54,687 nt of DNA from positions 1 to 54,687 of the IMG/VR virus record IMGVR_UViG_3300018080_000027, one strand, 5' to 3'. The stretch is from a virus. Below are positions 2,744-54,687 of the stretch, in pieces. The notes under the pieces are model-generated. The model ran no database searches, was not told where the DNA came from, and saw only the letters and a program-made list of their open reading frames with translations. Numbering within the stretch: the first letter of the stretch is position 1; the number at the start of each line of letters is the position of its first letter. The position numbers were made by a program, and so were the translations under genes.

Positions 2744-2755
2744 GAAACGCCAAAG

Positions 2756-21091: not shown

Positions 21092-22074
21092 AGCGACCCG
21101 TCTCCCTCTCCCTCGGCAGCCCCAACATTCCCGCGCAACTCCATCTCCCCAATAACGAACTCGAAACCATGTTGATACTCGGCCTGTTGCTCTTCGGTGT
21201 AGCCATGATCCGCGGCACATTGCTCGCCGTGCTCACGCCACCAAGAGACCGGTTTGCGAATGCAGCCGCTCGTGATATGGCCGTTGTCCGATTCGCAGAC
21301 GAAATGACTGGATGGCTGAATGAATACGGGGGATTGGTACCATTCCCCGCCGTGGAAGATCCCGTCGTGGAAGGTCCCGCCGTAGAAGGCCCCGCCGTGG
21401 AAGGTCCCGCCGCGGAAGATCCCGCCGCGGAAGGTCCCGCCGCGGAAGGTCCCGCCGCAGAAGGCCCCGCCGCGGAAGGTCCCGTCGTAGAAGGCCCCGC
21501 CGTAGAAGGTCCCGCCGCGGAAGGTCCCGCCGTGGAAGGCCCCGTCGCGGAAGGTCCCGTCGTGGAAGGTCCCGCCGTGGAAGGTCCCGTCGTGGAAGGT
21601 CCCGTCGTAGAAGGTCCCGTCGCAGAAGGCCCCGCCGTAGAAGGTCCCGTCGTGGAAGATCCCGCCGTAGAAGGCCCCGCCGCGGAAGGTCCCGCCGCGG
21701 AAGGCCCCGCCGCGGAAGGCCCCGCCGTGGAAGATCCCGTCGTGGAAGGCCCCGCCGTGGAAGGTCCCGCCGTGGAAGGTCCCGTCGTGGAAGGTCCCGC
21801 CGCGGAAGGTCCCGCCGCAGAAGGTCCCGCCGCGGAAGGTCCCGCCGTAGAAGGCCCCGCCGCCGAAGGTCCCGCCGTGGAAGGTCCCGCCGTGGAAGAT
21901 CCCGCCGTAGAAGGTCCCGTCGCGGAAGGTCCCGCCGTAGACAATTGCCGGTCCCGAAAATCGGCAACCATCGCTTGGACTCACAGCCTTATGCACTGCT
22001 GCTTTTCCGATCATCCTCCAATCGGATGTGTCAGTGCTAGTAATGCGTGCCGCCCTTTCAATTAGCGATTCCAT
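21088..22074 (-). CDS. Repeat protein with 40 tandem non-canonical pentapeptides x(G/D)G(T/A/I)F, plus a Cys/His-containing C-terminal domain
   Basis: ATG 22074 (MESLIERAAR) lies 26 nt after the helicase stop, with a GAGAAAGGAAA RBS. The stop is coupled to the nuclease start (ATGA at 21088-21091). Only this frame has coupled boundaries. Confidence 0.7.
   Translation of the reverse strand: MESLIERAARITSTDTSDWRMIGKAAVHKAVSPSDGCRFSGPAIVYGGTFRDGTFYGGIFHGGTFHGGTFGGGAFYGGTFRGGTFCGGTFRGGTFHDGTFHGGTFHGGAFHDGIFHGGAFRGGAFRGGTFRGGAFYGGIFHDGTFYGGAFCDGTFYDGTFHDGTFHGGTFHDGTFRDGAFHGGTFRGGTFYGGAFYDGTFRGGAFCGGTFRGGTFRGGIFRGGTFHGGAFYGGTFHDGIFHGGEWYQSPVFIQPSSHFVCESDNGHITSGCIRKPVSWWREHGEQCAADHGYTEEQQAEYQHGFEFVIGEMELRGNVGAAEGEGDGSL
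21340..21939. repeat. Perfectly phased 15-bp tandem repeat, 40 units, + strand consensus GAAG[G/A][T/C]CCCG[C/T]CG[T/C][G/A]
   Basis: All 39 full units were enumerated by eye. There are no indels, 10 of 15 positions are invariant, and 5 positions toggle between transition pairs (one exception, gcc in the unit at 21850-21864). Confidence 0.95.
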
Positions 22075-22100
22075 GTCATTTCCTTTCTCGTATTGCTTCC

Positions 22101-24467
22101 TCACCAAGTCCTTTCGTCTCCCTCCACAAGAAGAACCCCCGCGTCCGCTGCTATCTGGCGGATCGTTTCCGCCATAAACGTCTTTCGCTCTTGAAGCACC
22201 GCTCGGCGGCACACCGAATCGGCCACATGCTTTGCCCCGACGGCGATACACACCTTCTGCGCTCGAGACAGTCCGGTGTAGACGTGTTCTCGGCTCATCA
22301 CGCCATGTGGACCGCTCGCACCGGGGTACTCGTCGAGGCAGTAGATAACGACCGGCCATTGGCTGCCTTGCGATTTGTGCGTGGTCACGGCGTACGCCAA
22401 GTCGAGGTCGCAGCCCGTGCCTGCCTCGTCGCCGTTCTTTTCGTCGCTGGCCGGCTTGCCGGCGCCGCGGAACACAATCACCGGCTTGAGTGTGCTGGGA
22501 AATTGCACCACCGTTTTCTTCTCTTCCGCGACCAGCACCTTGCCGATTTCTCCGTTGGCAATCAGTGCCTTTTCGTCGGCAGAAGACCATTCCCCTTTCC
22601 GGGATCGCGTTGCAAACGGAATGAATTGGTTCTTGAGCTGAATCACCTTGTCGCTAGCGCGAAACGGGGTGCGGATATTCTTGTCGGCAACGGCTGGATT
22701 CAGAAGGTCCTGAAGTCGCTTGTTCAGGGCCACGCGACCTAGCGTCGACCGCTTGTTGACCGCTACCAATACCTGCGCGTCCCAGACAGCATCGAAGGGC
22801 GAATTGTCGCGGATGTCTCCGAGTATTTCACAGATGACGTTCGGCGCCTGCGAGCCCTTGCAGTGGCGCAGGATTAGGTTCTTGGGGTTTTCGGCTTGCA
22901 GGTCGAATTGTTCGTCCGGCTCCCACGGCTCTCGGTCGATGATCGCGGAGCAGACCCGAACGATAGTGCCGGCATTTCGGTGAATCTCCACCAGTTCCCC
23001 GCTCGGCAATCCCGCTTCGAGCATGTCGCGTACCGGGGCACCGTACTCGACTGGGGGAAGCTGGTTGACGTCGGCTACCAAGAGCAACCCGCACCCCCGC
23101 GGTATCGCGGCCAGTAGCGAGCGGAACAATCCCGTACCGAGCATCGACGCTTCTTCGACGATCACGAAACGAGCCGCGAGCGGGTTGGCCTCATCGTGCT
23201 GGAACTCCCACCCGCCCTCGTCGACCGCCTGGACGCCAAGTCCCGAATGGATCGTCGTCGGATTCGTGCCGGCGAGTTTCGCTTCGGCCATCAATTCCTT
23301 GACTCGCTGGGCGGCTTTTCCGGTCGGCGCCATCACCTTCACGCAGCCCTGACCGTGCATCTTCTGGATCGCACGGACAAGCCGCACGAGCGTAAACGAT
23401 TTCCCGGTCCCCGGCCGCCCGCCAAGGATGCCCACCGGGCCGCCTAGCGCACGGCGAAGCTCGCTCCGCTGATGGTCAGTCAATTCGCTGAAGTCTTCCT
23501 GGTCTACAGACGGCCACTCGATCGAATCATGGGCCATCTTGTCGGCCAGCTTCCGGCAACAATACTCCTCGGCGTTCGCGCGTCGAATGTCGGCCGACCA
23601 CACCTTCCCAAACTGGTCTTTTCGCACCTTCAGGATCTTGCCGCGGACGGCCAGTGTGAGCGCCTTCTCGGGAGTGACTTGCGTACCGCCCACCGCGGCC
23701 TTCAGGTAATCGATGCCCTTCTGCCACTCCACCCACGTATGCCCCTCGCCGTCTGAGGCTTTCAGGGTCGCGTAGGTCAGGCAGTACGCTTGCCGCTTCA
23801 GCTTGGCCGGGTCATGGCCGAGGTCTAAGTAGAACTTGTCCGCCTTCAGGAACCCGACGCCACGCAAGGCCATCGCCCGGTGCGGCCAACGGGTGAGGAT
23901 GTCGTGTGCCGCTGCCCCCCACAGCGTCAGCGATTGGCGAACACACGCCTTGCCGAATCCACGGCCATCGAATAGATCGTATAGCTGGATCGTGAGGTCT
24001 TCGGCGGCCTTCAACTCGTGCAACGTCTCGGCCGCCTCGCGTGCTTTCTCGGGCGTGAATTGTCTCACGCCGATGGCTTCGGCTGCCTGCTCCGGTTCCT
24101 CTCGCAGTTCTTTGACCGCATCGCCCCGAAACGCATCCCACAACGCGTGGGCGATCGCCGGGCCGACGTGCTTGGCCTGCTGGAGGTACTTGACAATTCC
24201 CGCCTGGTTGTGCGGCTGAACGGAAGCGAATGAATCGAAGCGGAACGATGGCCCGTACTGGCTATTACTGTTGTCCCATCGCCCCCAGAACCGAAATGGC
24301 AATTGGGCCTTCAGTTCGCCCGGTTCCGCGTTGCCGAGGATCGAGAACCTCGCGGGTGCGTCCCGGTTGACCGGCGGCTGTTGTTTCGCCGACATGATGC
24401 AGAACGAATCACGGCGAAACTTTTCGTCGATCGGGACCGCTGTTATCTCGTGCAATTTTGCTGGCAT
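22101..24467 (-). CDS. RecD/TraA-family SF1 DNA helicase
   Basis: GGRPGTGKSF (motif I), APTGKAAQR (Ia), FVIVEEASML (II), LLLVADVNQLPPVEYGAP (III), AVTTHKSQGSQWPVVI (V/VI) and VYTGLSRAQK. Confidence 0.9.
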   Translation of the reverse strand: MPAKLHEITAVPIDEKFRRDSFCIMSAKQQPPVNRDAPARFSILGNAEPGELKAQLPFRFWGRWDNSNSQYGPSFRFDSFASVQPHNQAGIVKYLQQAKHVGPAIAHALWDAFRGDAVKELREEPEQAAEAIGVRQFTPEKAREAAETLHELKAAEDLTIQLYDLFDGRGFGKACVRQSLTLWGAAAHDILTRWPHRAMALRGVGFLKADKFYLDLGHDPAKLKRQAYCLTYATLKASDGEGHTWVEWQKGIDYLKAAVGGTQVTPEKALTLAVRGKILKVRKDQFGKVWSADIRRANAEEYCCRKLADKMAHDSIEWPSVDQEDFSELTDHQRSELRRALGGPVGILGGRPGTGKSFTLVRLVRAIQKMHGQGCVKVMAPTGKAAQRVKELMAEAKLAGTNPTTIHSGLGVQAVDEGGWEFQHDEANPLAARFVIVEEASMLGTGLFRSLLAAIPRGCGLLLVADVNQLPPVEYGAPVRDMLEAGLPSGELVEIHRNAGTIVRVCSAIIDREPWEPDEQFDLQAENPKNLILRHCKGSQAPNVICEILGDIRDNSPFDAVWDAQVLVAVNKRSTLGRVALNKRLQDLLNPAVADKNIRTPFRASDKVIQLKNQFIPFATRSRKGEWSSADEKALIANGEIGKVLVAEEKKTVVQFPSTLKPVIVFRGAGKPASDEKNGDEAGTGCDLDLAYAVTTHKSQGSQWPVVIYCLDEYPGASGPHGVMSREHVYTGLSRAQKVCIAVGAKHVADSVCRRAVLQERKTFMAETIRQIAADAGVLLVEGDERTW

Positions 24468-29206: not shown

Positions 29207-29357
29207 GTAAGGGGCTGGAAAAAATGGAATTCCCTGCCAAATGCCTAATCGGAGGGGTATCGGCCCAGCTACTAGACAACCACTATTAGGGTTGTTTGGT
29301 AGCGGCATTGACGGAGTTTTCTGCATGGAGGCGTGGTTGCTCTCAGGAGGACCCGCC

Positions 29358-30209
29358 GTGATTAGAAGCTGCACCCTCGCGGAATACGTAGACGCGTACG
29401 CGACACGCCGGCCGATAGCCCCCGCCTCCGTTGAATTGTTGCGGGTTTCTTGCCGCCTGCTGGCGTCCTACCTCGAACGATCGCCAACCCTGCCCGATCT
29501 CTCGGACGATACGCTCAACGGCTTCGTGCAATGGCTTGAAGCCGGCCGACGGCCAGCGACCGTGAAGAAACACCGGGCGAACATTCTGTCACTCTGGCGA
29601 GACGCTTGGCATGGCAATCTGGTCGAGGACCCGCCGGCCCGGATCCGGGTGGTGCGGCTCGAACGGTCACTCCCCGACGCTTGGACCATCGAAGAGATTC
29701 AGCAATTGATTTCGACCGCCGAGAAAATGAGGGGGCGATTCCGCAAAACGCTGATTCCGAAAAGCTGGTTCTGGCACTCGATGATCCTCGGCCTTTGGGA
29801 TACCGGATTGCGGATTGGGGACCTGCTCGAAGTCCGTCGCCCGCGCGTCACTGGCGATGGGCGGTTCCGCGTCCTGCAGCGGAAAACGCAGCATTGGAAG
29901 GATTGCCAATTTCGGCGGCCAACGCTCGAATTGATTGATTCCGGTCTGGATGGCCGAGTGGTCATCTGGCCGCTCTGGGCTTCGAGGCGAGACTTCTACA
30001 AGGCATTCAAGAGGATCGTCAGGGCAGCGAGGATCCGGCCGGGCACCACCCGCTGGATCCGGCGATCGGCGGCGAGTTACGTCGAGCGTGACCACCCTGG
30101 AGCGGCTACCGAGTTCCTCGGGCACCGAGATAGGACCATCGCCGACCGGCATTACATCGACCCGCGAATTGCCAGGCCGGCACTGCATCAACCCCCAGAG
30201 TTGGGGTGA
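29358..30209 (+). CDS. int: Tyrosine recombinase (phage integrase)
   Basis: GLRIGDLLEV (Arg box), RWIRRSAAS, LGHRDRTIADRHYID (His...Tyr). GTG 29358 is preceded by AGGAGG. ATG 29241 and ATG 29325 are alternative starts. Confidence 0.85.
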   Translation: MIRSCTLAEYVDAYATRRPIAPASVELLRVSCRLLASYLERSPTLPDLSDDTLNGFVQWLEAGRRPATVKKHRANILSLWRDAWHGNLVEDPPARIRVVRLERSLPDAWTIEEIQQLISTAEKMRGRFRKTLIPKSWFWHSMILGLWDTGLRIGDLLEVRRPRVTGDGRFRVLQRKTQHWKDCQFRRPTLELIDSGLDGRVVIWPLWASRRDFYKAFKRIVRAARIRPGTTRWIRRSAASYVERDHPGAATEFLGHRDRTIADRHYIDPRIARPALHQPPELG

Positions 30210-30640: not shown

Positions 30641-31342
30641 CTACGGCGAGGCATCGCAGCTTTCGTATCTTGCCAAGATTCTCGCTACAATCTGGTGCGG
30701 CCAAGTGTACTTGCCGCGGCGTTCGATCCTCTCGGCTTCCAATCGCCGGCCGATCGCTCGAAGTGATAGCCCCTCGGTTCGCAGCCGTTGGATGTGTCCA
30801 ACGACCTCGATTTCTTCCGGGCACTCGACAAGCCGGGCCGGGTCTTCCGGATCCCGCATCGTGCCCCAGGGTACACGATTGCTCATCCGCCGGCCGTTTG
30901 CCTGATGGCAGAGCATAGCCGCGCTGGTCCTCATGGCCCCTTCCTCGCGGAAATACTGATCCATCGCCACCGCGAAGTGGAACATCAACCGGCCTTGGGG
31001 CGTGCTGGTGTCAACCTGGAAGCCCTCGAGCGCTCGCAATTCGGCCCCTGCCGCGTCGAGCCGTTCGTAGACCTCTATTGCATCCCGAAGGTTACGGGCG
31101 AACCTGGAGAGCGTGTAGACGCATAGAACGGCCTTCTGCCGGCAAGCGGCGTCGATCGCGGCCAGAAACCCGGGCCGGTTGTCCATCCTGCCCCCACTCT
31201 TGAGGGAATCGGAGTGTTCCCCAACGACCGTATCCCCCCGCCGGTCGCAGTCAGCCCGCAATACCTGGCACTGCAGGGCGATGCTCTCATTTTCTTCCGG
31301 CCTAGGGGAGATTCGAGCATACAAGACGGCGGGCGTTGTCAT
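30641..31342 (-). CDS. Small serine recombinase (resolvase/invertase family) with a C-terminal HTH
   Basis: AVLYARISPRPEENESIALQ (catalytic Ser context), VYTLSRFARN, VDTSTPQGRL, C-terminal LSLRAIGRRL. ATG 31342 overlaps the methylase stop (ATGA). Confidence 0.85.
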   Translation of the reverse strand: MTTPAVLYARISPRPEENESIALQCQVLRADCDRRGDTVVGEHSDSLKSGGRMDNRPGFLAAIDAACRQKAVLCVYTLSRFARNLRDAIEVYERLDAAGAELRALEGFQVDTSTPQGRLMFHFAVAMDQYFREEGAMRTSAAMLCHQANGRRMSNRVPWGTMRDPEDPARLVECPEEIEVVGHIQRLRTEGLSLRAIGRRLEAERIERRGKYTWPHQIVARILARYESCDASP

Positions 31343-31989
31343 GCCGGGGCCTCGTTCATGGTCAACAGAACCGCATTCACCCGGGTGCCTTCCTCCCGGA
31401 ACGATCCCTCGGGTAACTCCTCCCACGAATCGGCCAACGGCTGCAGCTTCTCGCGTTGCCGAGGTCCATTGGCACACAATGCAACCAGCCGGCCGCCGGG
31501 CACCAACAAGCCCCGGGCGTGCTGGATGTGCTTCACGTCTCGCCCCATCTTGAATGGGGGGTTCATTACGATCCGGTCGAACCGCCCTCCGAGGCGATCC
31601 GGGCCACACTCCAGAAAATCGGCCTGCACTAGCCGTATCCCGCCGCCGAATCGATACAACTCGCCGCAACAGTCCGCGGAGTTCTCAACCAGGATAACCT
31701 CGATCCGATCACGGCAAGCCCGCCGGATGGCCTGGTACAGCCGACCGAGACCCGCCGACGGCTCTAAGACCCTATGCCCCTCCTCGATCTCCGCAATCGC
31801 CGCCATGCGGTCGGCCAACCACTCTGGAGTTTGAAATAGATTGAACGCCGAGACGGCCCGGGGGGCGGAATCCTCCCGGGCCAGCCGGTGGAACCTCGAG
31901 CGCTCGCGGCTCATCTCCTCCCCGACCGCCTCCGTCACTTCGCGCAGGTGGCGAAGTCGGAGACGGCCGGTCAACTGGGACTCTCTCAT
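31339..31989 (-). CDS. Orphan N6-adenine DNA methyltransferase (no cognate endonuclease recognised in the window)
   Basis: FQTP, VLEPSAGLG (motif I) and VMNPPF (motif IV). ATG 31989 overlaps the upstream stop (ATGA). Confidence 0.8.
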   Translation of the reverse strand: MRESQLTGRLRLRHLREVTEAVGEEMSRERSRFHRLAREDSAPRAVSAFNLFQTPEWLADRMAAIAEIEEGHRVLEPSAGLGRLYQAIRRACRDRIEVILVENSADCCGELYRFGGGIRLVQADFLECGPDRLGGRFDRIVMNPPFKMGRDVKHIQHARGLLVPGGRLVALCANGPRQREKLQPLADSWEELPEGSFREEGTRVNAVLLTMNEAPA

Positions 31990-39789: not shown

Positions 39790-39826
39790 AAGGAGGCCGC
39801 GCTGGAAAGCGTTGGCCTCCTTTTTT
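39790..39826 (+). terminator. Intrinsic terminator or attenuator between terL and the portal gene
   Basis: AAGGAGGCC-N15-GGCCTCCTT followed by TTTT. Confidence 0.6.
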
Positions 39827-39847
39827 CGTTCGTGCGAAAGGCTGTCG

Positions 39848-41632
39848 ATGATCGACCTGCACGACAAACAGTCTCGCGGTCGTCTTTTGAAGGCCGTCAA
39901 GACATCGCGGCAAGCGATGGATCCGTTCCGTAAGGTCCGCAAGGAACTGATCCGCGACTACGTTGGTTCTTGGTACAGCGAAGGCGGCGCCCGGAACAAA
40001 ACACTCGTCAATCTGATGAACCAGACGGCCCGGATCTACACCGTGGCCCTTGCGGCGAACAACCCGCAAGTGATGGTTTCCACCCCGCGATCCGAGAACT
40101 GGCCGTTTGCGAAGCGGTTCGAGGTCAATCTGAACAAACTGATCTCGGACATGACGCTCGACAAGACGTTTCGGTCGATCGTCCTGGACGCTTTCTTCTG
40201 CCTCGGTTGCGGCGTCGTGATGATGCGGGACACCGACACCCGATTTCATGGACTACTGGAGTCGGAGGAGGATGTCTGGCTCGACCCGGGCGAACCGTGG
40301 CTGAACCGGGTTGCCATCGACGACTTGATCTTGGACATGCCCGCCAAGGAACTCTCGAAGATGCGATTCTGCGGACACATGTACCGCGCAGACTTCGAGA
40401 AGGTAATGGATGAACCGGGCTACGACAAGAAGGTCAAGTCCCATCTCACCCCGACGAGCAAGAACACGACCGACAACCCCGATACCGCCCGCGATATTGC
40501 CGCCGGTATGGCCGTCGATGACGACGAACTGAAGCCGATGATTTGGCTTCAAGACATTTGGGTCGCCGAGAATGGCTCGGTCGCCACGATGACGGTCGAC
40601 AAGGACTTGCCGCCACTACTGGAGCGAGCGTGGACCGGAAGCCAGTCAGGGCCTTACAAGTTTCTCTCTCTGGGGAATGTGCCCGATAACGTCATCCCAG
40701 CCTCGCCGGCCGTGAACCTGAAGGGACTGCACGACCTGCAGAACCGCTTGCATCGCAGGATGGAGCAGGATTCGGACGCCCACCGAATTGTCAACGTCTA
40801 CCCACCCGGCAAAGAAGACGATGCCGAGGGGCTGCGGAGGGCAAGACGAAACTCGTGGCACCGGATGAACGACCCCAAGAGCATTTCCCAGATCGAGATA
40901 GGTGGCGTTGACCCGCGGGACCAAGCGCTTTCCCTGTTCATCCAGGACGAGCACGACCGCTTTGCCGGGAATCTGCTGGCAATGGGCGGACTTGGGCCGC
41001 AAGCCTCAACGGTCGGTCAAGAGGAGATGATTCACGGCCAGGTCTCCCGCACGGAAGCCGATATGCGGATGTCGGTCGTCGGCTTCGCATCGGAGTGCGT
41101 TCTGGACCTCGGGAGACTCATGTGGGAGGACGAAGCCCTTGAGTTGCAATCGTCGATCCCCGTTGGAAACAGTGGTATTGAAGTACGATCGCACTGGAAA
41201 CCCGACGTTCGCGTGGGTTCGTTTGAGGATTACGAGTTTCGCGTGGAACCGTACTCGATGGTCTTCAAGACTCCGGAACAAAAGCTCCAAGAGCTTTTCC
41301 AGACCCTCCGAGAAATTGCACCACTTTGGCCGATGTTCCAGGCGTCTGGGGCGTCACTGGACGCAGAAGCAATTATCGATGAGATCGCCCGACTGAAGAA
41401 TCGGCCGGAATTTAAGCGATTCATCACGTTCGCCTCCCCCGCCGACATGCTCGGCGGCGACCAGAACTCAGTACGACAATCGCCCGTCACGTCGCGAGAG
41501 ACGATACGCCGGAATATCCCGACCGGCGGCACGCAAGGTGCGCGTTCGCAGATTCTTCAGCAAGCGCTGATGGGGGGCGGTTCGCAAGTCAATGGACAAC
41601 AAGCGGCGGCAATGGCACGGAGCCCGGCATGA
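39848..41632 (+). CDS. Portal protein
   Basis: 594 aa. Sits directly after terL and before the scaffold and capsid genes. ATG 39848 was chosen because the TTG 39812 extension would include the terminator. Confidence 0.7.
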   Translation: MIDLHDKQSRGRLLKAVKTSRQAMDPFRKVRKELIRDYVGSWYSEGGARNKTLVNLMNQTARIYTVALAANNPQVMVSTPRSENWPFAKRFEVNLNKLISDMTLDKTFRSIVLDAFFCLGCGVVMMRDTDTRFHGLLESEEDVWLDPGEPWLNRVAIDDLILDMPAKELSKMRFCGHMYRADFEKVMDEPGYDKKVKSHLTPTSKNTTDNPDTARDIAAGMAVDDDELKPMIWLQDIWVAENGSVATMTVDKDLPPLLERAWTGSQSGPYKFLSLGNVPDNVIPASPAVNLKGLHDLQNRLHRRMEQDSDAHRIVNVYPPGKEDDAEGLRRARRNSWHRMNDPKSISQIEIGGVDPRDQALSLFIQDEHDRFAGNLLAMGGLGPQASTVGQEEMIHGQVSRTEADMRMSVVGFASECVLDLGRLMWEDEALELQSSIPVGNSGIEVRSHWKPDVRVGSFEDYEFRVEPYSMVFKTPEQKLQELFQTLREIAPLWPMFQASGASLDAEAIIDEIARLKNRPEFKRFITFASPADMLGGDQNSVRQSPVTSRETIRRNIPTGGTQGARSQILQQALMGGGSQVNGQQAAAMARSPA

Positions 41633-42942: not shown

Positions 42943-44049
42943 ATGGCACTCGGAATTGAACAACTCGACGATTTTGTCGCGAGTTATCTCCAGGCATACC
43001 CAATGGGTCAGTGGCAGGACATTTCCTTGCCGCTGCAGGAGTATTACTTCGCCTCGCGGCTGTTCGATCGAGCGAACAAGCGGGAAATGTCCACTTCACA
43101 ATGCAAGTGGAAACTGAAGATCGACAACAACTCGAACTTCCAGGTCGTCGGTCTTTACCACCGCGACTCGTCTAGCCGGGTCAACGTGCTGACCGAAGGT
43201 AGCCTGAAGTGGGGCATGACAACGACCAACTACCACTACGACATCGACGAGGAAACCTTCGCGCAGGGCGCCGATGCGATCGTCGACTACCTGGACCTGC
43301 AAGAGCAGGGCTTAATGCAGGACTTCTTCGTGGGCATGGAAGACATCATGTTCGGGCCCGGCCCATCGGCTTCGACGGTGACTCCGTTCCCGCCCGTGTC
43401 GCTATTGTGGTGGATCACGGCCACCGACGACAGCACGTCCGAGAACAACTCGGAAGAGGGCTTCGACGGGTACGAACCGGTCGGATGGGGTTCATCCGGC
43501 GCTGGCGGAATCTCCTGCACCGACTACGAGCAGTGGCGGAATCGGACCTTTCCGTATACGGTCGTCGATCGGGACGACTTCATCGAGAAGACCATCAACT
43601 CGATGGATCTCTGCACGTTCAAGCCGCCGATCGACCGATCGGACATCAAACCGGAAGGGAAGCATCGGTGGGAACTGCTGACCACGCATTCCCGTGTCGC
43701 AGCCGGGCGCAAGTTGTTGCAGCTTGGCAACGACAACATCAAGGATGACTTGGCCGCCCACTCCGGCAGCGTTTTCATTCGCGGCGTCCCGATGACCTGG
43801 GTGCCGGCCTGGACCAACGCGAATAGCGACAACGCCCGCGATGACGGCATTATCCTCGGCGTTGACTGGAATACGTTCGATGCCTACTACGCTTCCGGTC
43901 GCAGCCAGAGGAAGCGGAAGCCGTACCAGCATCCGGAAATGAGCAACGTCCGTGTTCGTGCGATGGACGATGCCCTGCAAATCGTGTGCTACAACCGCCG
44001 GGCCAACTTCCGCGGTTATTGCACGGAGACTGTCACCGAAACCGCGTAG
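42943..44049 (+). CDS. Major capsid protein candidate
   Basis: 368 aa. Canonical position after the scaffold gene and followed by a strong terminator. No motif-level proof. Confidence 0.65.
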   Translation: MALGIEQLDDFVASYLQAYPMGQWQDISLPLQEYYFASRLFDRANKREMSTSQCKWKLKIDNNSNFQVVGLYHRDSSSRVNVLTEGSLKWGMTTTNYHYDIDEETFAQGADAIVDYLDLQEQGLMQDFFVGMEDIMFGPGPSASTVTPFPPVSLLWWITATDDSTSENNSEEGFDGYEPVGWGSSGAGGISCTDYEQWRNRTFPYTVVDRDDFIEKTINSMDLCTFKPPIDRSDIKPEGKHRWELLTTHSRVAAGRKLLQLGNDNIKDDLAAHSGSVFIRGVPMTWVPAWTNANSDNARDDGIILGVDWNTFDAYYASGRSQRKRKPYQHPEMSNVRVRAMDDALQIVCYNRRANFRGYCTETVTETA

Positions 44050-46877: not shown

Positions 46878-48041
46878 ATGTCCGGATTCCAAGGATTCTT
46901 GCGACAAGCGACGTCGGTAGACGTGCTGATCGGCCCATTTCTCGACGAGGACGACCAGAAGACGGCCGAGAGTAGCCTGACGATCACTTCCTCCGATGTT
47001 TATTTGAGCAAGAACGGACAGGGGTTGGCTGCCAAGCATGATTCCACGGCTTGTGCGTTCGATGAGGGCGGTCCTGGCGGATGCTACAATTGCCCGCTCG
47101 ACTCGGATGACACCGACACCTGTGGCCAACTGACGCTGATAGTCCACGAGTCTGGGGCATTGCCCGTGCGGAATGACTATCAGGTGATAACGCGAGCGGC
47201 TTACGATGCGATGTTTGGTTCCTCCGCAAAGGGGCCAACAATCCACGCTGCGCATACGCCGTCATCGGTGGCGAATGTTACCGGTCAACAGACGGGTACG
47301 TATGCCAGCGCGGCCAGCCGGGATGGAAGCTACCACCTACTCACGGATGAAGGTGATGGAATCGAAATCGACTATGTATTCAACGACGTAGCCGCCGAAA
47401 TCATCCCCGTGGCCGTAGAAATCACCGCCCGGTACAACGGTCAGTCGGGCACGTCGATCAACGTGTCGGCCTACAACTACGAAACCAGCGAGTGGGAGCA
47501 ACTAAACGACTCCAATACGGCGTTCACGCATAGCTCCAGCGATTCAACAGTGCGGTTCGACCTGGATGCTGCTCATCGAGAAGACGGTGCGGCAAAGCTC
47601 CGATTCGTTTCCGACACCGCGAACTCCGGCGATACCTTGCGATTCGATCAAGTCAGAATCCTTTCTTCGACGAATGAACCACCACTGAAGCAAGCAGCGA
47701 TTGCCACAGCGATCGAGGGATTGTCAGCAATTGTTGCCGCCAAGACGATTGCCGACGACTGGACCGATGGTGGCCGGCTCGATTTGCTCCTTGATGCCAT
47801 CCCGACGACCGGTACTGGCTCTGTATCGACAACGATCAATGTCAAGGTAGGTGGCGTAGCGGTTGACGGCGCCGAGGTTCGCATCACATCCGACGCGGAT
47901 GGCAACACGGCAGTCGCCGGACCCAAGTACACGGACGCCAGCGGCAATGCCACTTTCCTCTTGGACCCAGGCACCTACTACGCTTGGGTCCAATCCGCCG
48001 GATACGACTTTAGTAATCCAACCACGGTCACGGTGACGTAA
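46878..48041 (+). CDS. Tail-associated protein with a C-terminal carboxypeptidase-regulatory-like beta-sandwich
   Basis: VKVGGVAVDGAEVRITSDADGN...TDASGNATFLLDPGTYYAWVQSAGY. Confidence 0.5.
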   Translation: MSGFQGFLRQATSVDVLIGPFLDEDDQKTAESSLTITSSDVYLSKNGQGLAAKHDSTACAFDEGGPGGCYNCPLDSDDTDTCGQLTLIVHESGALPVRNDYQVITRAAYDAMFGSSAKGPTIHAAHTPSSVANVTGQQTGTYASAASRDGSYHLLTDEGDGIEIDYVFNDVAAEIIPVAVEITARYNGQSGTSINVSAYNYETSEWEQLNDSNTAFTHSSSDSTVRFDLDAAHREDGAAKLRFVSDTANSGDTLRFDQVRILSSTNEPPLKQAAIATAIEGLSAIVAAKTIADDWTDGGRLDLLLDAIPTTGTGSVSTTINVKVGGVAVDGAEVRITSDADGNTAVAGPKYTDASGNATFLLDPGTYYAWVQSAGYDFSNPTTVTVT

Positions 48042-49036
48042 TGGGTACTACCAACATCACGGGTTCTGCCGCATCCGCACCGGGCGGGATGCCCGCAACG
48101 TACGCCAGCCTGCTCGAGCGCGTGGGGCATTACCTGTTTGGCATCCGCACCGGGTTTTCCGCCGATCAGACCAGCGACATCGAGGATTGCATCCAGGACG
48201 GCTTGAACGACGTCTACGCGGCGCATTCGTGGTCGTTCTTCCGCCCAATCGAAGAGATCACTACCACGGCGCCGTATGACACCGGCACGATTGAGGTCGC
48301 CAGTGGGGTCGTGACGCTTACTGATGGCACGTTCCCTTCCTGGGCGGCTGTCGGCGTGCTGCAAGTTGACGACGAATACCATGACGTTGACACCAGGGAC
48401 GGCGATACCCAAATCACACTGGAAGACACGACGGTCGACGCGGATTCCGGCTCCAGTTATGAGTTAGGGCGACCGGAATACGACTTGCCGACTGCTTTTG
48501 AGGCGATCGAGGACGATTTGGTGTACGAACCTGGCCAATCGGATTTCTACCCGCCGGTGCGGCAGAGGCACGACGGGGAGATCCTCCGGATGCGGCAGGA
48601 CGATCCCTACCACGATCGGCCGGTCTTCTACGGCATCCGCACGGTGGAATTCGATCCTACCGTAGGGTCCCGCCGAAGGCTTTCGCTATATCCGACGCCC
48701 GACGCGGCCTACGTATTCAAGGCTCGCATGAAGTTGCGGGCGACGATGATTGACGAGACCAATTTGTATCCGGTTGGCGGGGAGTCGCTCGCGCAGGTCA
48801 TCACCGAGGCGTGTCTTGCCGCGGCCGAACGCAATTTCGACGAACAAGAAGGCCGGCACACAAAGCGGTTCCAAGAGTTACTTCCGCTAGCGATTGCCGC
48901 CGACCAGCAGATGACAAGCCCGACGAGCCTTGGCCCCGACAGACCGAAAGGCGAGAGATGGGGCGGGAGATACGATTCAGACTACCTTCGGGCCTCCCGC
49001 ATTGGAGACCTAACACTCGACGGAGAGACGTTATGA
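48041..49036 (+). CDS. Hypothetical structural protein (adaptor-like candidate)
   Basis: 331-aa ORF overlapping its neighbours at both ends. Confidence 0.45.
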   Translation: MGTTNITGSAASAPGGMPATYASLLERVGHYLFGIRTGFSADQTSDIEDCIQDGLNDVYAAHSWSFFRPIEEITTTAPYDTGTIEVASGVVTLTDGTFPSWAAVGVLQVDDEYHDVDTRDGDTQITLEDTTVDADSGSSYELGRPEYDLPTAFEAIEDDLVYEPGQSDFYPPVRQRHDGEILRMRQDDPYHDRPVFYGIRTVEFDPTVGSRRRLSLYPTPDAAYVFKARMKLRATMIDETNLYPVGGESLAQVITEACLAAAERNFDEQEGRHTKRFQELLPLAIAADQQMTSPTSLGPDRPKGERWGGRYDSDYLRASRIGDLTLDGETL

Positions 49037-49413
49037 GCCACAGAATCCATCACGATTTGTATGAAGGCCACAAGAGACTCGAAGACCCGGGCGACGGGAA
49101 AACGATTCGCGTGGTGGAAGACCTCTCCATCTGCGAACTTGTATCCGGGGCTTCCGCCGAAACGCGGGTACTGGCCAACCCAACCAAGCCCGGCATCCGA
49201 TTCACCCTCCGGATGCTCACGGACGGTGGCGGGGATGTTGTCGTGTCGGCGGAGAACGGCATCAACGTCGACTTGGAAACCCACATTACGTTCGCCGATG
49301 CCGCTGACTCGCTGGACCTGATTTCCGTAACGAAGACCGTGGGCGAGCCCCAGTCCGCCGCCGTGTACCGATGGCAGGTGCATGACGGGAATATCGGGGT
49401 GACTCTCGCGTAG
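49033..49413 (+). CDS. Structural-module protein, paralogue A
   Basis: ATGA overlap with the previous gene. Shares HRIHHxLYxGxK, DPGDGKTIR, SGASAETRVLANPTK, LTDGGGDVVVSA and RWQV with 49472..50128. Confidence 0.6.
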   Translation: MSHRIHHDLYEGHKRLEDPGDGKTIRVVEDLSICELVSGASAETRVLANPTKPGIRFTLRMLTDGGGDVVVSAENGINVDLETHITFADAADSLDLISVTKTVGEPQSAAVYRWQVHDGNIGVTLA

Positions 49414-49471
49414 TGCATGTTCCTCTCGGCCGCTTGGCCGTGTTCCTCTCTCCTTAAAAGGAGTGTTCCTC

Positions 49472-50128
49472 ATGTCGAGTCCCCATAGAATTCACCACCA
49501 ACTGTACCGCGGGTCCAAGGTAATGACGGATCCGGGGGACGGGAAGACAATTCGCCCAAACAAAGACCTTCAGATTTGCGAAATGACGTCCGGGGCTTCT
49601 GCCGAGACCCGGGTACTCGCCAATCCAACGAAGGCAGGAATTCGGTTCGCGCTTCGGCTCTTGACCGATGGTGGCGGGGATGTTGTTGTTTCGGCCGCCA
49701 ACGGCCTGAATACGGCGCTCGAGACGAGTGCCACGTTTGCCGACGCCGGAGATATGCTCTCGCTGATTTCGGTTTCTCTTACCGCCACCACGTTCCGATG
49801 GCAGGTATTGGATGGTCAGCTTGGCGCCGGCATAGCCACGGCAACCGCCACGGCCACGGCTACCGCAACCTCGACGGCAACCAGTTCGACAACGGCTTCG
49901 GCGACGACGTCTTCCTCGAAGTCCACGTCGGCAACCACGTCGGCAACCATGACGGTTACGGCAACCGGTTCCGGAACCAAGACGGATTCGCCGACGGCCA
50001 CCAGCACGTCTACGCGGACGGCAACCAGCACGAAAACCGCGACTTCGACGCAGACGCAGACGCCGAGTGCTACCAGCACGAGCACTTCGACTGCAACGTC
50101 TACGGCCACCGCAACCGGCACCCAGTAA
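49472..50128 (+). CDS. Structural-module protein, paralogue B, with a Thr/Ala/Ser-rich C-terminal extension of about 98 aa
   Basis: AAGGAG RBS 8 nt upstream of ATG 49472. The tail spans 49832-50125 (ATATATATATSTATSSTTASATTSSSKSTSATTS...). Confidence 0.65.
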   Translation: MSSPHRIHHQLYRGSKVMTDPGDGKTIRPNKDLQICEMTSGASAETRVLANPTKAGIRFALRLLTDGGGDVVVSAANGLNTALETSATFADAGDMLSLISVSLTATTFRWQVLDGQLGAGIATATATATATATSTATSSTTASATTSSSKSTSATTSATMTVTATGSGTKTDSPTATSTSTRTATSTKTATSTQTQTPSATSTSTSTATSTATATGTQ

Positions 50129-50137
50129 GGAGGACCG

Positions 50138-50773
50138 ATGGATTTCCAGACCGCGCTGGAGAAGCATTTCAAGTTCACTGGCAGGGCGTCACGCGACAAC
50201 CTGCCGGCACTTGCAATGGCGAGATTCCATTGGGGCGAGAAAGGAGATCATGGCCGACAGGCGCTTGCCCGCATGATTGCCGACTTGGGTTATCGCGAAG
50301 GCGTAGAAATTGGAACGCTTCGCGGCGATTCGGCCGTTATGTTCCTGGAGCAAGCCCCAAAGCTCCACTTGACGTGCGTTGACCCCTACGCGAGGTATAA
50401 CGCCCGGCACTCCCAGGAGTCGCAGGACGAGATCTTCGTGGAGGCCACCAAGAGGCTGAGGCCATACAACGCCGACATCGTTCGCGAGTTTAGCATGGAT
50501 GCCGTTGAAAGTTTCGAGGATGGCTCCATTGACTTCGTCAACATTGACGGGAACCACGAATTCGACCCGGTGATGCAGGACCTTATCTGCTGGGCAAGGA
50601 AGGTTCGGCGGGGCGGCCTGATTATGCTCCACGACTACTGTACGTTATGGTGGGGCGGAATCGTGAGGGCCGTTGATGCGTACACAATGGCCCACCGGGT
50701 AGACCCGTGGTACGTAACGCGCGATCACTTGCCGACCGCGTTTTGGAGGAAAGGCGACGAACGGGTAAAATGA
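50138..50773 (+). CDS. Class I SAM-dependent methyltransferase (Methyltransf_24 / O-methyltransferase-like)
   Basis: GVEIGTLRGDSAVMF (motif I) and IDFVNIDGNHEFDPVMQDL...GGLIMLHDY. Confidence 0.7.
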   Translation: MDFQTALEKHFKFTGRASRDNLPALAMARFHWGEKGDHGRQALARMIADLGYREGVEIGTLRGDSAVMFLEQAPKLHLTCVDPYARYNARHSQESQDEIFVEATKRLRPYNADIVREFSMDAVESFEDGSIDFVNIDGNHEFDPVMQDLICWARKVRRGGLIMLHDYCTLWWGGIVRAVDAYTMAHRVDPWYVTRDHLPTAFWRKGDERVK

Positions 50774-51513
50774 AACTCTCCATCGTCATCCCGGTACTCG
50801 ACAGCCACGAGGGCCTGCGCAGGCAACTCCTCCACATGGAGCGGATCGGACTTCCGGACGACACCGAGTTGATCTTGGTCGACGATGGCAGTGACCCGCC
50901 GATCGAAAACACGTCCAGTCTCCCGGTGAAGATACTCCGCACGGGCGACAAGCGGCCTTGGACATGGGCCCTTGCCAGGAATCGCGGGGCGGAAGAGGCA
51001 ACTGGCGAATACCTGTTGATGTTCGATCTCGATCATATTGTGACGCGAGAGTTGATGGACTTTGTTGTTGAGTCTGATGGGCCTCGGATTCACTTCCTCA
51101 GGTATTTTGGTGTTCTGGATGAAGAAGGGGTACTCATTACCGATCGGAGCACGTTAGAATCCTATGGGTTGCGTGACCCGAGGAAGCGGATTGAGTCCCA
51201 CCACAATAGCTTCGCCATGAAGCGTGACCTGTTTTGGAAGCTCGGCGGGTATCGCGAAGACATGATTGGGAGGCCATACCCGCAAGGAGAAGACAGTGAC
51301 TTCTACTCCAAGTGGAAGGCATACAGCGAAGTGGCCGGGATACCATCCACCGAAGGACCAATTTTGTTCGTGTTCCCAACGGGCCGGTGGTGTGGCGATG
51401 TCGACCATGACCAACACGGCCTGTTTCACAATCTGAGTCGCAAGACGACCAACAATTACTGGTGGAATCACCAAAGGAGGCAAGAGTGTCAGACGGTTTC
51501 GCACGAGACTTGA
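50770..51513 (+). CDS. Family-2-type (GT-A) glycosyltransferase
   Basis: KLSIVIPVLDSHEGL...ELILVDDGSD and a DLD (DxD) motif. ATGA coupling to the methyltransferase gene. Confidence 0.75.
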   Translation: MKLSIVIPVLDSHEGLRRQLLHMERIGLPDDTELILVDDGSDPPIENTSSLPVKILRTGDKRPWTWALARNRGAEEATGEYLLMFDLDHIVTRELMDFVVESDGPRIHFLRYFGVLDEEGVLITDRSTLESYGLRDPRKRIESHHNSFAMKRDLFWKLGGYREDMIGRPYPQGEDSDFYSKWKAYSEVAGIPSTEGPILFVFPTGRWCGDVDHDQHGLFHNLSRKTTNNYWWNHQRRQECQTVSHET

Positions 51514-52457
51514 GCGTGATTATCCCAGGTCGGAACGAAATGTTCCACGCGCAGACGGTTGAGGACGTTCTGTCGCGCACCGAAGCGGACACCGAAGTTA
51601 TTTGCATCCTCGATGGCGACTGGCCGCCAGAGCGAGGAATCCGAGACGACCCGCGGGTGAAGGTCGTCAAGACGACAACGCCGATCGGGCAGCGAGCCGC
51701 GACGAACCTCGGGGCACAGATGAGCCGGGCAAAGTACATTATGAAGCTCGACGCCCACTGCAGGATGGACGATGGCTTCGACACGAAGATGATCGAGGCG
51801 ATGCAGCCCGAGTACACAATGATCCCGCAGATGTATCGGCTTCATGCGTTTGATTGGTGCTGCAACAACTGTGGCAATGGGACATACCAGGGCAGCAAAC
51901 CGGAGAAGTGCGAAGAGTGCGGCAAGAACGACCTATACATGAAGTTGGTGTGGGAGCCGAAGTGGAAAGTCGGGCCGACTGTTTCTTGGCGATTCGACGG
52001 CAACCTGCGAATGCAGTATTGGGGAGCCCACCGGAAGCGGGCGGAAGTGAAGGAACAGGCCAAGACCGGAGTTATCGATACGCCGATTTGTGTCGGGTGC
52101 TGCTTTCTGATGGAGCGGGAGCGGTTCCTGGACCTCGGCGGGATGGACGAGGGGCACGGAAGCTGGGGGCAGTACGGGTTCGAGTTGGGCGCCAAGGCGT
52201 GGCTCTCGGGCGGCAAGATGGTAACGAACATGAATACGTGGTTTGCCCATCTCTTCCGCACGGGCAACTTCTCGGTCAACGGGGAAAGCACATTCCCCTA
52301 CCCGCTCTCCGGGGCAGAACAAGAGAAGGCCCGCAAGTATTCCCGGGACCTGTGGATGAACGACAAGTGGCCCTTGGCGACTCGTAAGTTGCAATGGCTG
52401 ATCGATTACTTTGCCCCGATGCCGGACTGGCACGAGGAAAAGAGCGATGCCGCGTAA
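51486..52457 (+). CDS. GT-A glycosyltransferase with polypeptide-GalNAc-transferase-like (GT27/GT2) motifs and an inserted CxxC...CxxC zinc ribbon
   Basis: LSVIIPGRNE, MKLDAHC (DxH), SWGQYGFELGAKAWLSGGKMV...FAHLFR. GTG 51486 is preceded by AAGGAGG. ATG 51462 is an alternative start. Confidence 0.65.
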   Translation: MSDGFARDLSVIIPGRNEMFHAQTVEDVLSRTEADTEVICILDGDWPPERGIRDDPRVKVVKTTTPIGQRAATNLGAQMSRAKYIMKLDAHCRMDDGFDTKMIEAMQPEYTMIPQMYRLHAFDWCCNNCGNGTYQGSKPEKCEECGKNDLYMKLVWEPKWKVGPTVSWRFDGNLRMQYWGAHRKRAEVKEQAKTGVIDTPICVGCCFLMERERFLDLGGMDEGHGSWGQYGFELGAKAWLSGGKMVTNMNTWFAHLFRTGNFSVNGESTFPYPLSGAEQEKARKYSRDLWMNDKWPLATRKLQWLIDYFAPMPDWHEEKSDAA

Positions 52458-53697
52458 GACGATGGACATCCAGTTTCCCGCCGCCGGAGTTGTGAGGCGG
52501 TGGGGCCTTCATGCAGCAACAGGGGGTCGGGGACCATACCCGGCCCCCTGGGCGACGAATGTTCGCCTTGAGGGCGGTGTCGCGAATCGTCTGCGAGGCG
52601 GCTCGTTCACCGGGCAATCTGCAAGCTCCGTTGACGCCCCCCGCTACCCCTATCTCGTTACCGAGAACGGGGACAACGTCGTCACGGAGAACGGCGACAA
52701 GATCGTTCTTGGTCCGCAGTATGGCGTAGTGACCGGAGATGGTCGAGCTTGGGTTGCGGATGGGGACGATGCCCCCGACAGCGGAACGGCCGACTGCTAC
52801 TATCGAGGCCGGCTGCTTCGCGTCGAAGACAATGCGATTCTTGTGAGCAAGCAGGGGGACACGACGGACTGGGATTACGGTGGCGACTCCAGCAATACGG
52901 GACGGGCGACCATCATCCAGTTGTCCGAGGCGGGGGAAATCGGCGATGACGTGGTGGCTCTGGTGCCCCACAAGGATTCTTTCCTACTGGGGTTCACTGC
53001 CGCCGAGACGTGGGTGTTGACCGGAGACCCCACGAGCGGCACACTCCGCAACGTCTCTCGCGAAGTGGGAGTTATTGCCGCCCGTGCGTGGTGCAAGAAC
53101 CACGACACAATTTATTTCCTGTCTTCGCAAGGACTGTATTCGGTAGGGGCCGATGGAAGTGGATTGAAGCCGATCTCGGAGGACAAGATTCCCGAGGAGT
53201 TGACCGGCGTATCCGACGACGATTGTGTGCTTGACTACAACCATGCCGACCGGGGTGTCTACATCCACCTGTCGGAGGCGGACGTTTCGTGGTTCTACGA
53301 CACGGCGAGGGAGCAGTTCTGGCCGTTCACAACGGATTCGACTGACAGCCACGTCCTGATCGGACCATTTCGGCTGGGGCAAGTGAATTCCTTCGGGCGG
53401 ATCCTGAATCTGAATGGCATGATTGCCAGCGGCAGTGACGACGTGAATTGGCGGCTTGTGACCGGCGATTCCCCCGAGGAAGCCGTGGCGAACGGCAAGG
53501 CCGCCATCGAGGCCGCGATTGCCGGAGAAGACTACGACAGCTACGTTGCGTCGGAGGGGACATGGTCTGCCGGCCGATCGCATCGTTCGTACCCGCGGAC
53601 CAGGGCGGTTTGGTGCTGCCTCTGGTTGCACTCCGAAGGCGACTGGGCGTACGAAGGGGCCTCGCTCGAAGCGATGGTCTCTGGGAAATGGAGATAG
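52447..53697 (+). CDS. Hypothetical tail/structural protein
   Basis: ORF 52411..53697. ATG 52447 or ATG 52462 are the likely starts. Confidence 0.5.
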   Translation: MPRKTMDIQFPAAGVVRRWGLHAATGGRGPYPAPWATNVRLEGGVANRLRGGSFTGQSASSVDAPRYPYLVTENGDNVVTENGDKIVLGPQYGVVTGDGRAWVADGDDAPDSGTADCYYRGRLLRVEDNAILVSKQGDTTDWDYGGDSSNTGRATIIQLSEAGEIGDDVVALVPHKDSFLLGFTAAETWVLTGDPTSGTLRNVSREVGVIAARAWCKNHDTIYFLSSQGLYSVGADGSGLKPISEDKIPEELTGVSDDDCVLDYNHADRGVYIHLSEADVSWFYDTAREQFWPFTTDSTDSHVLIGPFRLGQVNSFGRILNLNGMIASGSDDVNWRLVTGDSPEEAVANGKAAIEAAIAGEDYDSYVASEGTWSAGRSHRSYPRTRAVWCCLWLHSEGDWAYEGASLEAMVSGKWR

Positions 53698-53701
53698 AGC
53701 A

Positions 53702-54687
53702 ATGGCCGATCGCAAGATGAGCGAAATGTCGCTCGACAACTCCCTTGACGGGACCGAGCGAATCCTAGCCCAAGGCGCCGACGGAGCGTGCATCACAACG
53801 GCCGTCATGGCTGCCTATGCCGTCGACCAGCTTCACCAAGCAGACGTCATCACGTCCCTTTCCGACGCCCATGAATTGGTAGTTTTCGTCTCTGACGTGG
53901 AGAAGATCATCACCGTTGCCAACCTCTCGGCGTGGGTAATAGACGAGATCGAGGCAATCACGACCGGGAGCACGATTACCAGCGGCGACACGCTCATATA
54001 TTCCGATGGTGGCACGCTGAAGCAAATCGACATCGACGACGTGGAGAGCTACTTGCAGGCGAATCTCGAATCTGCGTCTCACAACTTCACGAGCATGGAC
54101 GCCGTTGTTGCCGTCGCGGGGACGGATGTTTTCGCACTGGATCAAGGCGCTGCCACGAAGAAGCTGACTTACACGCAACTCTCTGCGGAGATCTGGGGGG
54201 AGTTGGCCGCGAATGTCGCTGGGTGCTCGGCGATTTCTTCCCCGAGTGGATCGGACCAGTTTTACGTGTCTCGGGCCGGTGCTGACAAAAGCATAACCCT
54301 CACGGTGTTGTCTACCTACCTACTGAATCAAATAGACCCCGACGGCGCCTCCTGGATGCTCGATGAAGATGACATGGCGTCGAACGATGACACCAAAGTT
54401 CCAAGCCAACAGAGCGTGAAGGCATTTGCTGAGACGATCGCCAACCACGACATCAGCAGCGGGACGGATATTGGCGAGGCTTTGGCTGACGGCGATTTAT
54501 TCAGTGTTTACAACCTGTCGAGTACCGTTGTGCGAAAGTCGGCGGTATCAAGAATCTGGACGTACATTTGGGCGCAAATGCAGGCGGCGTCTGCCAAGGC
54601 ATCCCCAGTAGCGGCTGACATCCTATTGATTCAGGACTCGGAGGACAGCAACAGCATCAAGGAAGTGACCTTCGCCGAACTGAAGAC
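53702..54687 (+). CDS. N-terminal part of the tail-fibre-like protein; open to the window end and continues at position 124 of the circle
   Basis: Hand translation from ATG 53702 finds no stop. Seven DxLxxxD...K(K)xT...L modules and a DEDDMASNDDTKVPSQQSVKAF motif common in phage fibre proteins. Absent from the ORF track because it has no stop in the window. Confidence 0.75.
   Translation, partial: MADRKMSEMSLDNSLDGTERILAQGADGACITTAVMAAYAVDQLHQADVITSLSDAHELVVFVSDVEKIITVANLSAWVIDEIEAITTGSTITSGDTLIYSDGGTLKQIDIDDVESYLQANLESASHNFTSMDAVVAVAGTDVFALDQGAATKKLTYTQLSAEIWGELAANVAGCSAISSPSGSDQFYVSRAGADKSITLTVLSTYLLNQIDPDGASWMLDEDDMASNDDTKVPSQQSVKAFAETIANHDISSGTDIGEALADGDLFSVYNLSSTVVRKSAVSRIWTYIWAQMQAASAKASPVAADILLIQDSEDSNSIKEVTFAELK
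54565..54687. repeat. Terminal overlap, copy 2; identical to 1-123
   Basis: Same 123-nt string as the window start. Confidence 0.95.

Follow-up and report, generated by a model that had tools for sequence, protein, structure and literature searches.

The window analysed here is the whole 54,687-nucleotide stretch of the virus record IMGVR_UViG_3300018080_000027, and the five-gene module at its positions 49033-52457 probably encodes a phage-borne cytoplasmic protein O-glycosylation system that decorates virion fibres. Two tandem paralogues, A and B, of which only B carries a periodic Ser/Thr-rich tail, are followed by genes for a methyltransferase (MT), a family 2 glycosyltransferase (GT2) and a second glycosyltransferase (GT) that resembles the polypeptide N-acetylgalactosaminyltransferases (GalNAc-transferases) of family GT27. 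A virion O-glycosylation module had been proposed at this place in a first, sequence-only reading of the window, and the proposal is supported computationally by the GT27 likeness of the last enzyme and by the comparison of relatives, glycosylation itself being a prediction from sequence.

Organisation of the module

The open reading frames (ORFs) of the module were found at the coordinates given in the sequence-only reading, all on the plus strand, and are listed here with their parts and proposed roles (aa, amino acids; nt, nucleotides; SAM, S-adenosylmethionine; X, any residue).

49033..49413, plus strand: paralogue A, untailed copy of the putative fibre-anchor domain, 126 aa
49472..49831, plus strand: N-terminal domain of paralogue B, about 120 aa, with a predicted tail-fibre/tailspike N-terminal attachment fold
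49832..50128, plus strand: C-terminal tail of paralogue B, about 97 aa plus stop, an (X-S/T)n tract and proposed O-glycan acceptor
49923..49949, plus strand: perfect 12-bp tandem repeat within the tail, site of a 12-nt (TSAT) length polymorphism
50138..50773, plus strand: class I SAM methyltransferase (MT), Methyltransf_24, proposed sugar O-methyltransferase
50770..51513, plus strand: GT2, a GT-A family 2 glycosyltransferase in which the DxD motif is DLD, proposed chain-extending enzyme
51486..52457, plus strand: GT27-like glycosyltransferase, 323 aa, with DxH, a Gal/GalNAc-T-like motif, a distal His and a zinc-ribbon insert, proposed initiating enzyme

A and B are tandem paralogues, as had been claimed, with 68% identity over 120 aa (E=4e-58). 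In an ATGA at 49033 the start of A and the stop of the structural gene before it overlap, and the product of A is identical to the metagenome protein P0021. B encodes 218 aa (49472-50128) and is alone in carrying the described Thr/Ser/Ala extension, which at 49832-50125 consists of 42% T, 21% S and 20% A. The three enzyme genes come directly after B inside the structural operon in overlapping or near-abutting frames, and the ATGA overlap between MT and GT2 was confirmed at 50770-50773. GT2 and the GT27-like gene overlap by 28 nt, and the start of the downstream structural gene (52447..53697) overlaps the GT27-like stop by 11 nt. Good ribosome-binding sites precede both B (AAAAGGAG) and MT (TAAGGAGG). 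No hydrophobic segment was found in any of the five module proteins, which makes a cytoplasmic location and action plausible, and none has a hydrophobic N-terminal segment able to act as a signal peptide.

The last enzyme resembles polypeptide GalNAc-transferases

In a phmmer search of the PDB with the GT27-like enzyme all the top 15 matches were polypeptide GalNAc-transferases, the best being GalNAc-T10 (E=2.7e-10), and a search with a 46-sequence profile again placed GT27 enzymes in the top 15 positions (E=4.7e-13) with both enzyme halves aligned. The AlphaFold2 (AF2) model of the enzyme, with a predicted local distance difference test score (pLDDT) of 90, gave in Foldseek a PDB list of which the top 50 were all GT27, with E down to 4.6e-17 and TM-scores of 0.59-0.65, and it superposes on GalNAc-T2. 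The GT27 likeness that had been suggested for 51486-52457 is thus borne out by sequence, profile and structure searches alike, and O-antigen or cell-wall enzymes, the other kind of match that had been considered, do not lead its match lists.

The motifs MKLDAHC and SWGQYGFELGAKAWLSGGKMV...FAHLFR, which had been noted as parallels to the signature of such enzymes, are present and are aligned by HMMER to LDSHC and ...GHIYR of GalNAc-T10. LDAHC is aligned to LDSHC/LDAHC of GalNAc-T10 and -T1, and the Gal/GalNAc-T motif occurs in divergent form, SWGQYGFELGAKAWLSGGKM aligning with the GT27 motif and FAHLFR with GHIYR/GHVFR. Residues D89, A90, H91, W227, G228, H255, F257 and R258 are invariant in the 46 homologues. 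Pfam assigned Glycos_transf_2 (1.9e-12) to the enzyme and scored Glyco_transf_7C at 20.0 bits against a 23-bit cut-off; PF02709 is annotated in several of its homologues.

No ricin-type lectin domain was detected by Pfam, and the 323-aa protein ends soon after the catalytic domain. Nor was a membrane anchor found, as the enzyme has no transmembrane segment and its maximum 19-residue Kyte-Doolittle hydropathy is 1.08. The GT-A domain holds a CxxC...CxxC zinc-ribbon insert at 51861-51920 (residues ~126-145), its four Cys invariant in the 46 homologues, which could be an acceptor-binding element in place of the lectin domain. The name 'rubrerythrin' in some JGI records is due to this insert.

More than 1500 metagenomic homologues of the GT27-like enzyme were found, and 262 IMG/VR contigs encode a relative. 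Among 185,579 bacterial and archaeal species genomes (GTDB) it occurred on seven phage-sized contigs of metagenome-assembled genomes only (L052-L058), and the family therefore looks phage-specific. The seven assembled genomes belong to discordant phyla, 3/7 being Planctomycetota; the contigs are likely mis-binned phage DNA and give a weak host hint.

Methyltransferase and GT2

MT belongs to the Pfam family PF13578, Methyltransf_24 (1.6e-19, 71.2 bits against a 26.3-bit cut-off), with a weak similarity to TylF (19.9 bits against a 23-bit cut-off). Its best match among GenBank phages and viruses is annotated as an O-methyltransferase, and its sole PDB match is 6g7d (E=4e-4), probably a mycobacterial sugar O-methyltransferase. 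For the product of 50770..51513 a GT2-type glycosyltransferase had been proposed, and the family-2 domain was recovered (Pfam Glycos_transf_2, 1.4e-10; motifs SIVIPV...VDDGSD and DLD); a closer assignment did not follow, its PDB and NCBIfam matches being generic only. The best of them are generic polysaccharide/lipid-linked GT2 enzymes, namely DPM synthase, EpsD and MftF-like proteins. GT2 is dispensable in some relatives, being absent from the loci L007 and L008.

A probable fibre-anchor domain with a periodic tail

The AF2 model of the domain shared by A and B is a beta-sandwich (pLDDT 88). Its best Foldseek matches in the PDB are the N-terminus of CBA120 TSP4 (E=1.5e-4), T4 gp9/gp10 and the Pa223 capsid spike, and its BFVD matches are N-termini of minor tail and tail fibre proteins. 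Relatives without the enzymes have a second copy of the domain in which the payload joined to it is LamG, SGNH esterase or a Gly-rich fibre sequence. We read the domain as a fibre anchor, with the periodic tail as its payload in this phage. That B belongs to the virion has indirect support from three sides: the position of its gene, its fibre-anchor fold and, in relatives, the payloads fused to the same domain.

The C-terminal extension of B, about 97-100 aa long, is strictly periodic: in one phase every position (100%) is S/T, in the other 31% are, and 0 of 2000 shuffles reached such a difference. The S/T register is also unbroken in 14/15 homologous tails, even where Leu, Lys, Asp or Pro stands between. 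In relatives, near-identical tails follow three or more N-terminal domains that are unrelated to one another, beside the cassette of enzyme genes. Within these low-complexity sequences there are conserved blocks, TVTATGSGTKTDSPTAT and STQSISGSDTASGTFSAS (B and homologues, P0001-P0028, L009 8262-9364), and the C-terminal ...ATATGTQ is conserved and common to three unrelated N-terminal domains; gene conversion or a docking/termination signal could lie behind this shared end. As the repeat also stays open in other frames, the tailed genes of relatives often escape gene callers.

At the DNA level the tail contains only short imperfect 6/12/18-bp arrays. That it is a recent DNA microsatellite was considered and rejected, since the arrays are short and imperfect, the codons vary, and register and motifs are kept at 58-82% identity. 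A JGI assembly of the same phage (L062 1440-2084) is 12 nt (TSAT) shorter at the perfect repeat, with flanks 100% identical. The difference is a step of two dipeptides and preserves the register.

Another low-complexity stretch, a Pro/Thr-rich linker of about 90 aa at 3040-3300 in the protein encoded at 2756-4450 (PTPTPTTPP...PKPTQPKPPTPTPTPTT), had been named as a second possible acceptor; it is dominated by Pro and lies outside the strict X-S/T register.

Tail and enzymes occur together in relatives

Relatives were collected by scanning IMG/VR with the anchor domain and by adding the contigs of metagenomic homologues of B, which gave 51 loci. At cassette-bearing loci a short paralogue is paired with a tailed one. 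In some 20 relatives at greater distance the domain occurs once, untailed, and the downstream structural gene comes directly after it; neither MT nor a GT gene is present there. Of the relatives that have the whole interval, 24-25 carry a full GT27-like gene together with a tailed paralogue and 16 carry neither (Fisher p ~2e-9, uncorrected for phylogeny); the tail is present in L006. The comparison with relatives lacking the tail or the GT genes, suggested as a check in the sequence-only reading, thus shows tail and cassette present or absent together. Both have been lost in L016: B is tail-less there, and what is left of the two GTs is a fusion, produced by a deletion, of ~70 N-terminal residues of GT2 with ~37 C-terminal residues of the GT27-like enzyme. 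In L007 and L008 the cassette is reduced to MT and the GT27-like enzyme only, which suggests that the GT27-like step is essential. One further locus, L015, looks rearranged or mis-assembled and was left unused as evidence.

Two samples were drawn on other genes. In a sample chosen on the capsid gene alone, a periodic tract was found in 4/5 GT27-like-positive and 0/10 negative loci. A further 74 loci were chosen on the GT27-like gene alone (46-81% identity) and scored for a periodic tract, defined as at least one ORF with at least 15 in-register S/T dipeptides within 10 kb. Such a tract was present in 62/74 (84%), an MT homologue in 65/74 (88%) and the anchor domain in 18/74; with so few anchor domains, most of these loci represent different phage backbones. 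Tract density was 20.5 aa/kb at the 74 GT27-like loci versus 0.8 aa/kb in cassette-less relatives.

The longest tracts, of the SPSASVS... type, have ~1000 residues, and a tract usually lies next to the GT27-like gene. In other lineages the proteins that bear them have LamG, GDSL/CE2 esterase or right-handed beta-helix (tailspike) domains, which are typical of fibres and spikes, and in some relatives the downstream structural protein itself has a long S/T-rich C-terminal tract. Of the self-contained module of acceptor and enzymes that had been proposed, the set of genes was confirmed; it is not limited to one candidate acceptor, several virion proteins carrying tracts in relatives.

Accessory tailoring genes differ among relatives and include sulfotransferases, radical SAM enzymes and extra GTs, as in glycan loci. 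Carbohydrate-type Sulfotransfer_2 genes lie within the cassettes of L004 (8876-9508 and 10176-10802) and L028 (2696-3355). The sulfotransferase-bearing relatives are marine, one of them a TARA scaffold, with short, Ser/Pro-rich tails, and the presence of these genes in marine cassettes suggests sulfated glycans. In L019 the region 4467-9110, between MT and the GT27-like gene, encodes a GT-B-like GT, a B12-binding radical SAM enzyme, a radical SAM/SPASM enzyme and an extra GT2. Several relatives have homing-endonuclease-like genes of the HNH (+ NUMOD3) kind inserted within the enzyme cassette or in the gap that separates the paralogues; these genes lie in L001 (~2324-3000, minus strand), L012 (11298-12173) and L026 (11836-12498).

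Proposed mechanism and alternative explanations

In the mechanism favoured here, the late structural operon would co-express B with the three enzymes by way of their overlapping reading frames. The GT27-like enzyme, with a metal site made up of DxH and the distal His, would place the first sugar on hydroxyls of the tail, the donor probably being a uridine diphosphate (UDP)-hexose or UDP-N-acetylhexosamine (UDP-HexNAc). GT2 would lengthen the glycan, and the Methyltransf_24 enzyme would O-methylate it. Through its N-terminal domain B, now a glycosylated, mucin-like filament, would then attach next to untailed A at the tail or neck of a particle of podovirus-like type, and the coat may benefit the phage by shielding, by preventing aggregation or by adhesion.

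Several observations weigh against this interpretation. Co-occurrence within the close clade could stem from one ancestral event, the GT27-like-positive relative L166 is without a tract within 20 kb, and poly-Ser tracts occur at a few cassette-less loci (L035, L036). The conserved blocks of the tail and its ...ATATGTQ end hint at a structural or docking role beyond mucin-like disorder. Recombinase- and integrase-like genes make a lysogenic lifestyle possible, and the sole PHROG match of MT is to a family labelled DNA methyltransferase, a label that its cyanophage homologues also carry in RefSeq.

Three other explanations were considered for the same set of genes. The enzymes may modify the host envelope, in serotype conversion or superinfection exclusion, or other virion proteins such as the capsid, and the tails would then be unglycosylated spacers or silk-like or Thr-ladder-like beta-structures. 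The alternating polar/small pattern of the tail fits a beta-strand face, with conserved X residues in the blocks, and both the lipid- and polysaccharide-linked matches of the middle GT2 and the genome's serine recombinase and weak tyrosine integrase match are in line with an envelope target. This explanation is nevertheless judged unlikely: the cassette is translationally coupled between structural genes, ~20 kb from the recombinase genes, its enzymes have no membrane segment, the key enzyme finds its top matches among enzymes that modify polypeptides and not lipids or polysaccharides, and enzyme and tract co-occur across phage backbones and are lost together in L016. It is far less probable that the cassette modifies phage DNA, a nucleotide or a small molecule, as in anti-restriction bases, and stands beside the tailed protein by coincidence. 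Glycosylation of DNA is a known strategy of phages and would agree with the DNA methyltransferase labels around MT, but the cassette is located in the late structural module away from the replication genes (16-35 kb), Methyltransf_24 with the weak TylF similarity points to O-methylation, and in fold and motifs the GT27-like enzyme matches polypeptide transferases; the near-constant (X-S/T)n neighbourhood would be unexplained by a role on DNA.

A similarly slim chance is given to tails that are glycosylated by host enzymes in the initiating step, with the phage cassette only tailoring or extending the glycan. Bacteria with general O-glycosylation or serine-rich-repeat systems do exist (PMC12041528, PMC5856776), but the known host systems for S/T-rich regions work outside the cytoplasm and virions assemble inside. 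The GT27-like enzyme, moreover, resembles initiating polypeptide transferases, and it is retained with MT in the reduced set of L007 and L008.

Genome and structural operon

The genome is complete. Positions 1-123 of the window are repeated at 54565-54687, and this recurrence of the first 123 nt at the end indicates a complete circular or terminally redundant genome, here taken as circularly permuted, with a unique length of 54,564 bp. The phage was recovered in three independent assemblies, with lengths of 54,560-54,571 bp. By blastn against GenBank phages no DNA match was found except one, a 'lamprin'-annotated low-complexity stretch that was the sole match of the region and was dismissed as compositional. 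No tRNA genes were found in the genome.

A rightward structural operon runs from ~37.6 kb to the window end and continues into the window start. Apart from the module it includes the following features.

39812-41632: portal candidate, SU10-type, a faint match
42943-44049: major capsid protein, podovirus-type (NCBIfam capsid_maj_Podo, 8e-18, below the curated cut-off)
upstream of the module: Laminin_G_3 protein
48041..49036, plus strand: conserved upstream structural gene, 331 aa, which flanks the module in all relatives and is given for context only
52447..53697, plus strand: conserved downstream structural gene, phrog_578, connector category, its start inferred from homologues

PHROGs and Pfam gave no match for A and B nor for most of the structural proteins, and PDB sequence searches with the flanking structural proteins and the capsid returned noise only. 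The replication genes lie at 16-35 kb, apart from the late structural module. A serine recombinase is encoded at 30641-31669 on the minus strand (Resolvase 8e-26, with a Recombinase domain), and a marginal tyrosine Phage_integrase match is found at 29241-30209 on the plus strand (27.4 bits against a 27.1-bit cut-off). Both are ~20 kb from the cassette, and given these genes the phage may be temperate.

The window has other features away from the module. A giant ORF of 2656 aa at 5756-13726 has an LPD38 'large polyvalent protein' domain (6e-21) and is probably an internal or ejected virion protein; it is followed by a trypsin-like peptidase at 14598-15620. A 15-bp unit is repeated 39.5 times in tandem at 21346-21938; in the long minus-strand frame, an ORF inside 21088-22590, the repeat yields ~40 pentapeptide units GGTF[H/R/Y]/DGTFH, and another frame reads (GPSTA)n. 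The product of 21088-22590 matches Pfam Pentapeptide_4 below threshold (5e-5) and may be a pentapeptide-repeat (Qnr/MfpA-like) early protein.

Comparison with known systems

To our knowledge, phage-encoded virion glycosylation has been experimentally documented for a few mycobacteriophages only, in which it blunts antibody recognition. These are Che8, Corndog/cluster O and Myrna (Freeman et al. 2023, as relayed in PMC11600133 and PMC12363180). According to PMC4351075, PMC11600133 and PMC12363180, an O-methyltransferase and three GTs in the structural operon of cluster O phages modify virion proteins; the gene map of Corndog gp35-38 is given in PMC4351075. The module described here is similar in having phage GT genes and an O-methyltransferase in a structural operon, in the same tandem MT-GT-GT order. 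The acceptors there are capsid and tail-tube subunits, whereas here the proposed acceptor is a periodic tract on the fibre-anchor protein of a podovirus-like phage; the capsid and tail-tube C-termini of Corndog are ordinary sequence and not low-complexity, and the capsid candidate at 42943-44049 has no S/T tract.

That the enzymes are orthologues of those in the Corndog/Che8 system was considered and rejected, as tblastn of MT, GT2 and the GT27-like enzyme against GenBank phages revealed no mycobacteriophage homologue, the direct comparison covering Corndog. The GT27-like enzyme had no tblastn match in 50,697 GenBank phage records. BLASTP and phmmer against Corndog gp35-gp38 gave only GT2 versus gp37 (E=9e-5), a generic GT-A match.

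With the eukaryotic GT27 enzymes the phage enzyme has in common the GT-A fold, DxH, a Gal/GalNAc-T-like motif and the distal His, together with Ser/Thr-rich tandem-repeat sequences as acceptors, predicted ones in the phage. Unlike them it has no lectin domain or type II anchor, carries the zinc-ribbon insert and is only ~20% identical, and its setting would be cytoplasmic and prokaryotic-viral.

The serine-rich repeat glycoproteins of Gram-positive bacteria (Fap1/GspB type) are glycosylated in the cytoplasm by GtfA/GtfB. The likeness lies in S/T at every second residue, neighbouring dedicated GTs, cytoplasmic modification, predicted in our case, and a surface fibre. The initiators of those systems are GT-B enzymes (GT4) whereas both GTs here are GT-A, and the bacterial proteins are exported by accessory Sec and anchored to the cell wall whereas the tract here is Thr-rich and would sit on proteins of a phage particle. 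Related glycosylation of streptococcal S/T-rich regions is described in PMC12041528 and PMC5856776.

Giant viruses also differ: with chlorovirus capsid glycans and mimivirus fibrils they have their own cytoplasmic glycosylation machinery including sugar-modifying enzymes, but they are eukaryotic viruses with other enzyme families and acceptor types. In the literature searched, no prior description of phage GT27-like enzymes or of S/T-rich glycosylated phage fibres was found.

Sugar-coated virion fibres are probably common beyond the few mycobacteriophages. More tentatively, hundreds of uncultured phage lineages may use a soluble GT27 relative to glycosylate (X-S/T)n tracts on fibre, spike and connector proteins in the bacterial cytoplasm, with variable methyl-, sulfo- and radical-SAM tailoring, giving bottle-brush, mucin-like appendages; such a system would be viral, mobile and undescribed, and its enzyme would be a sister of GT27, or the source of it, in viruses of prokaryotes. 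Should the predicted glycosylation hold for this module, glycan-coated virion fibres would be widespread in environmental phages by a chemistry unrelated to the mycobacteriophage case, and Ser/Thr at every second residue would be a simple, portable acceptor code and a sequence signature predicting glycosylated phage proteins in metagenomes. The minimal soluble GT27-like enzyme would be of use for glyco-engineering of proteins and therapeutic phages and would offer a fresh angle on the origin of mucin-type O-glycosylation. In relation to the systems above, what appears to be new here is the combination of a GT27-like enzyme with a serine-rich-repeat-like acceptor, in a gene architecture that parallels that of the mycobacteriophages with non-homologous enzymes.

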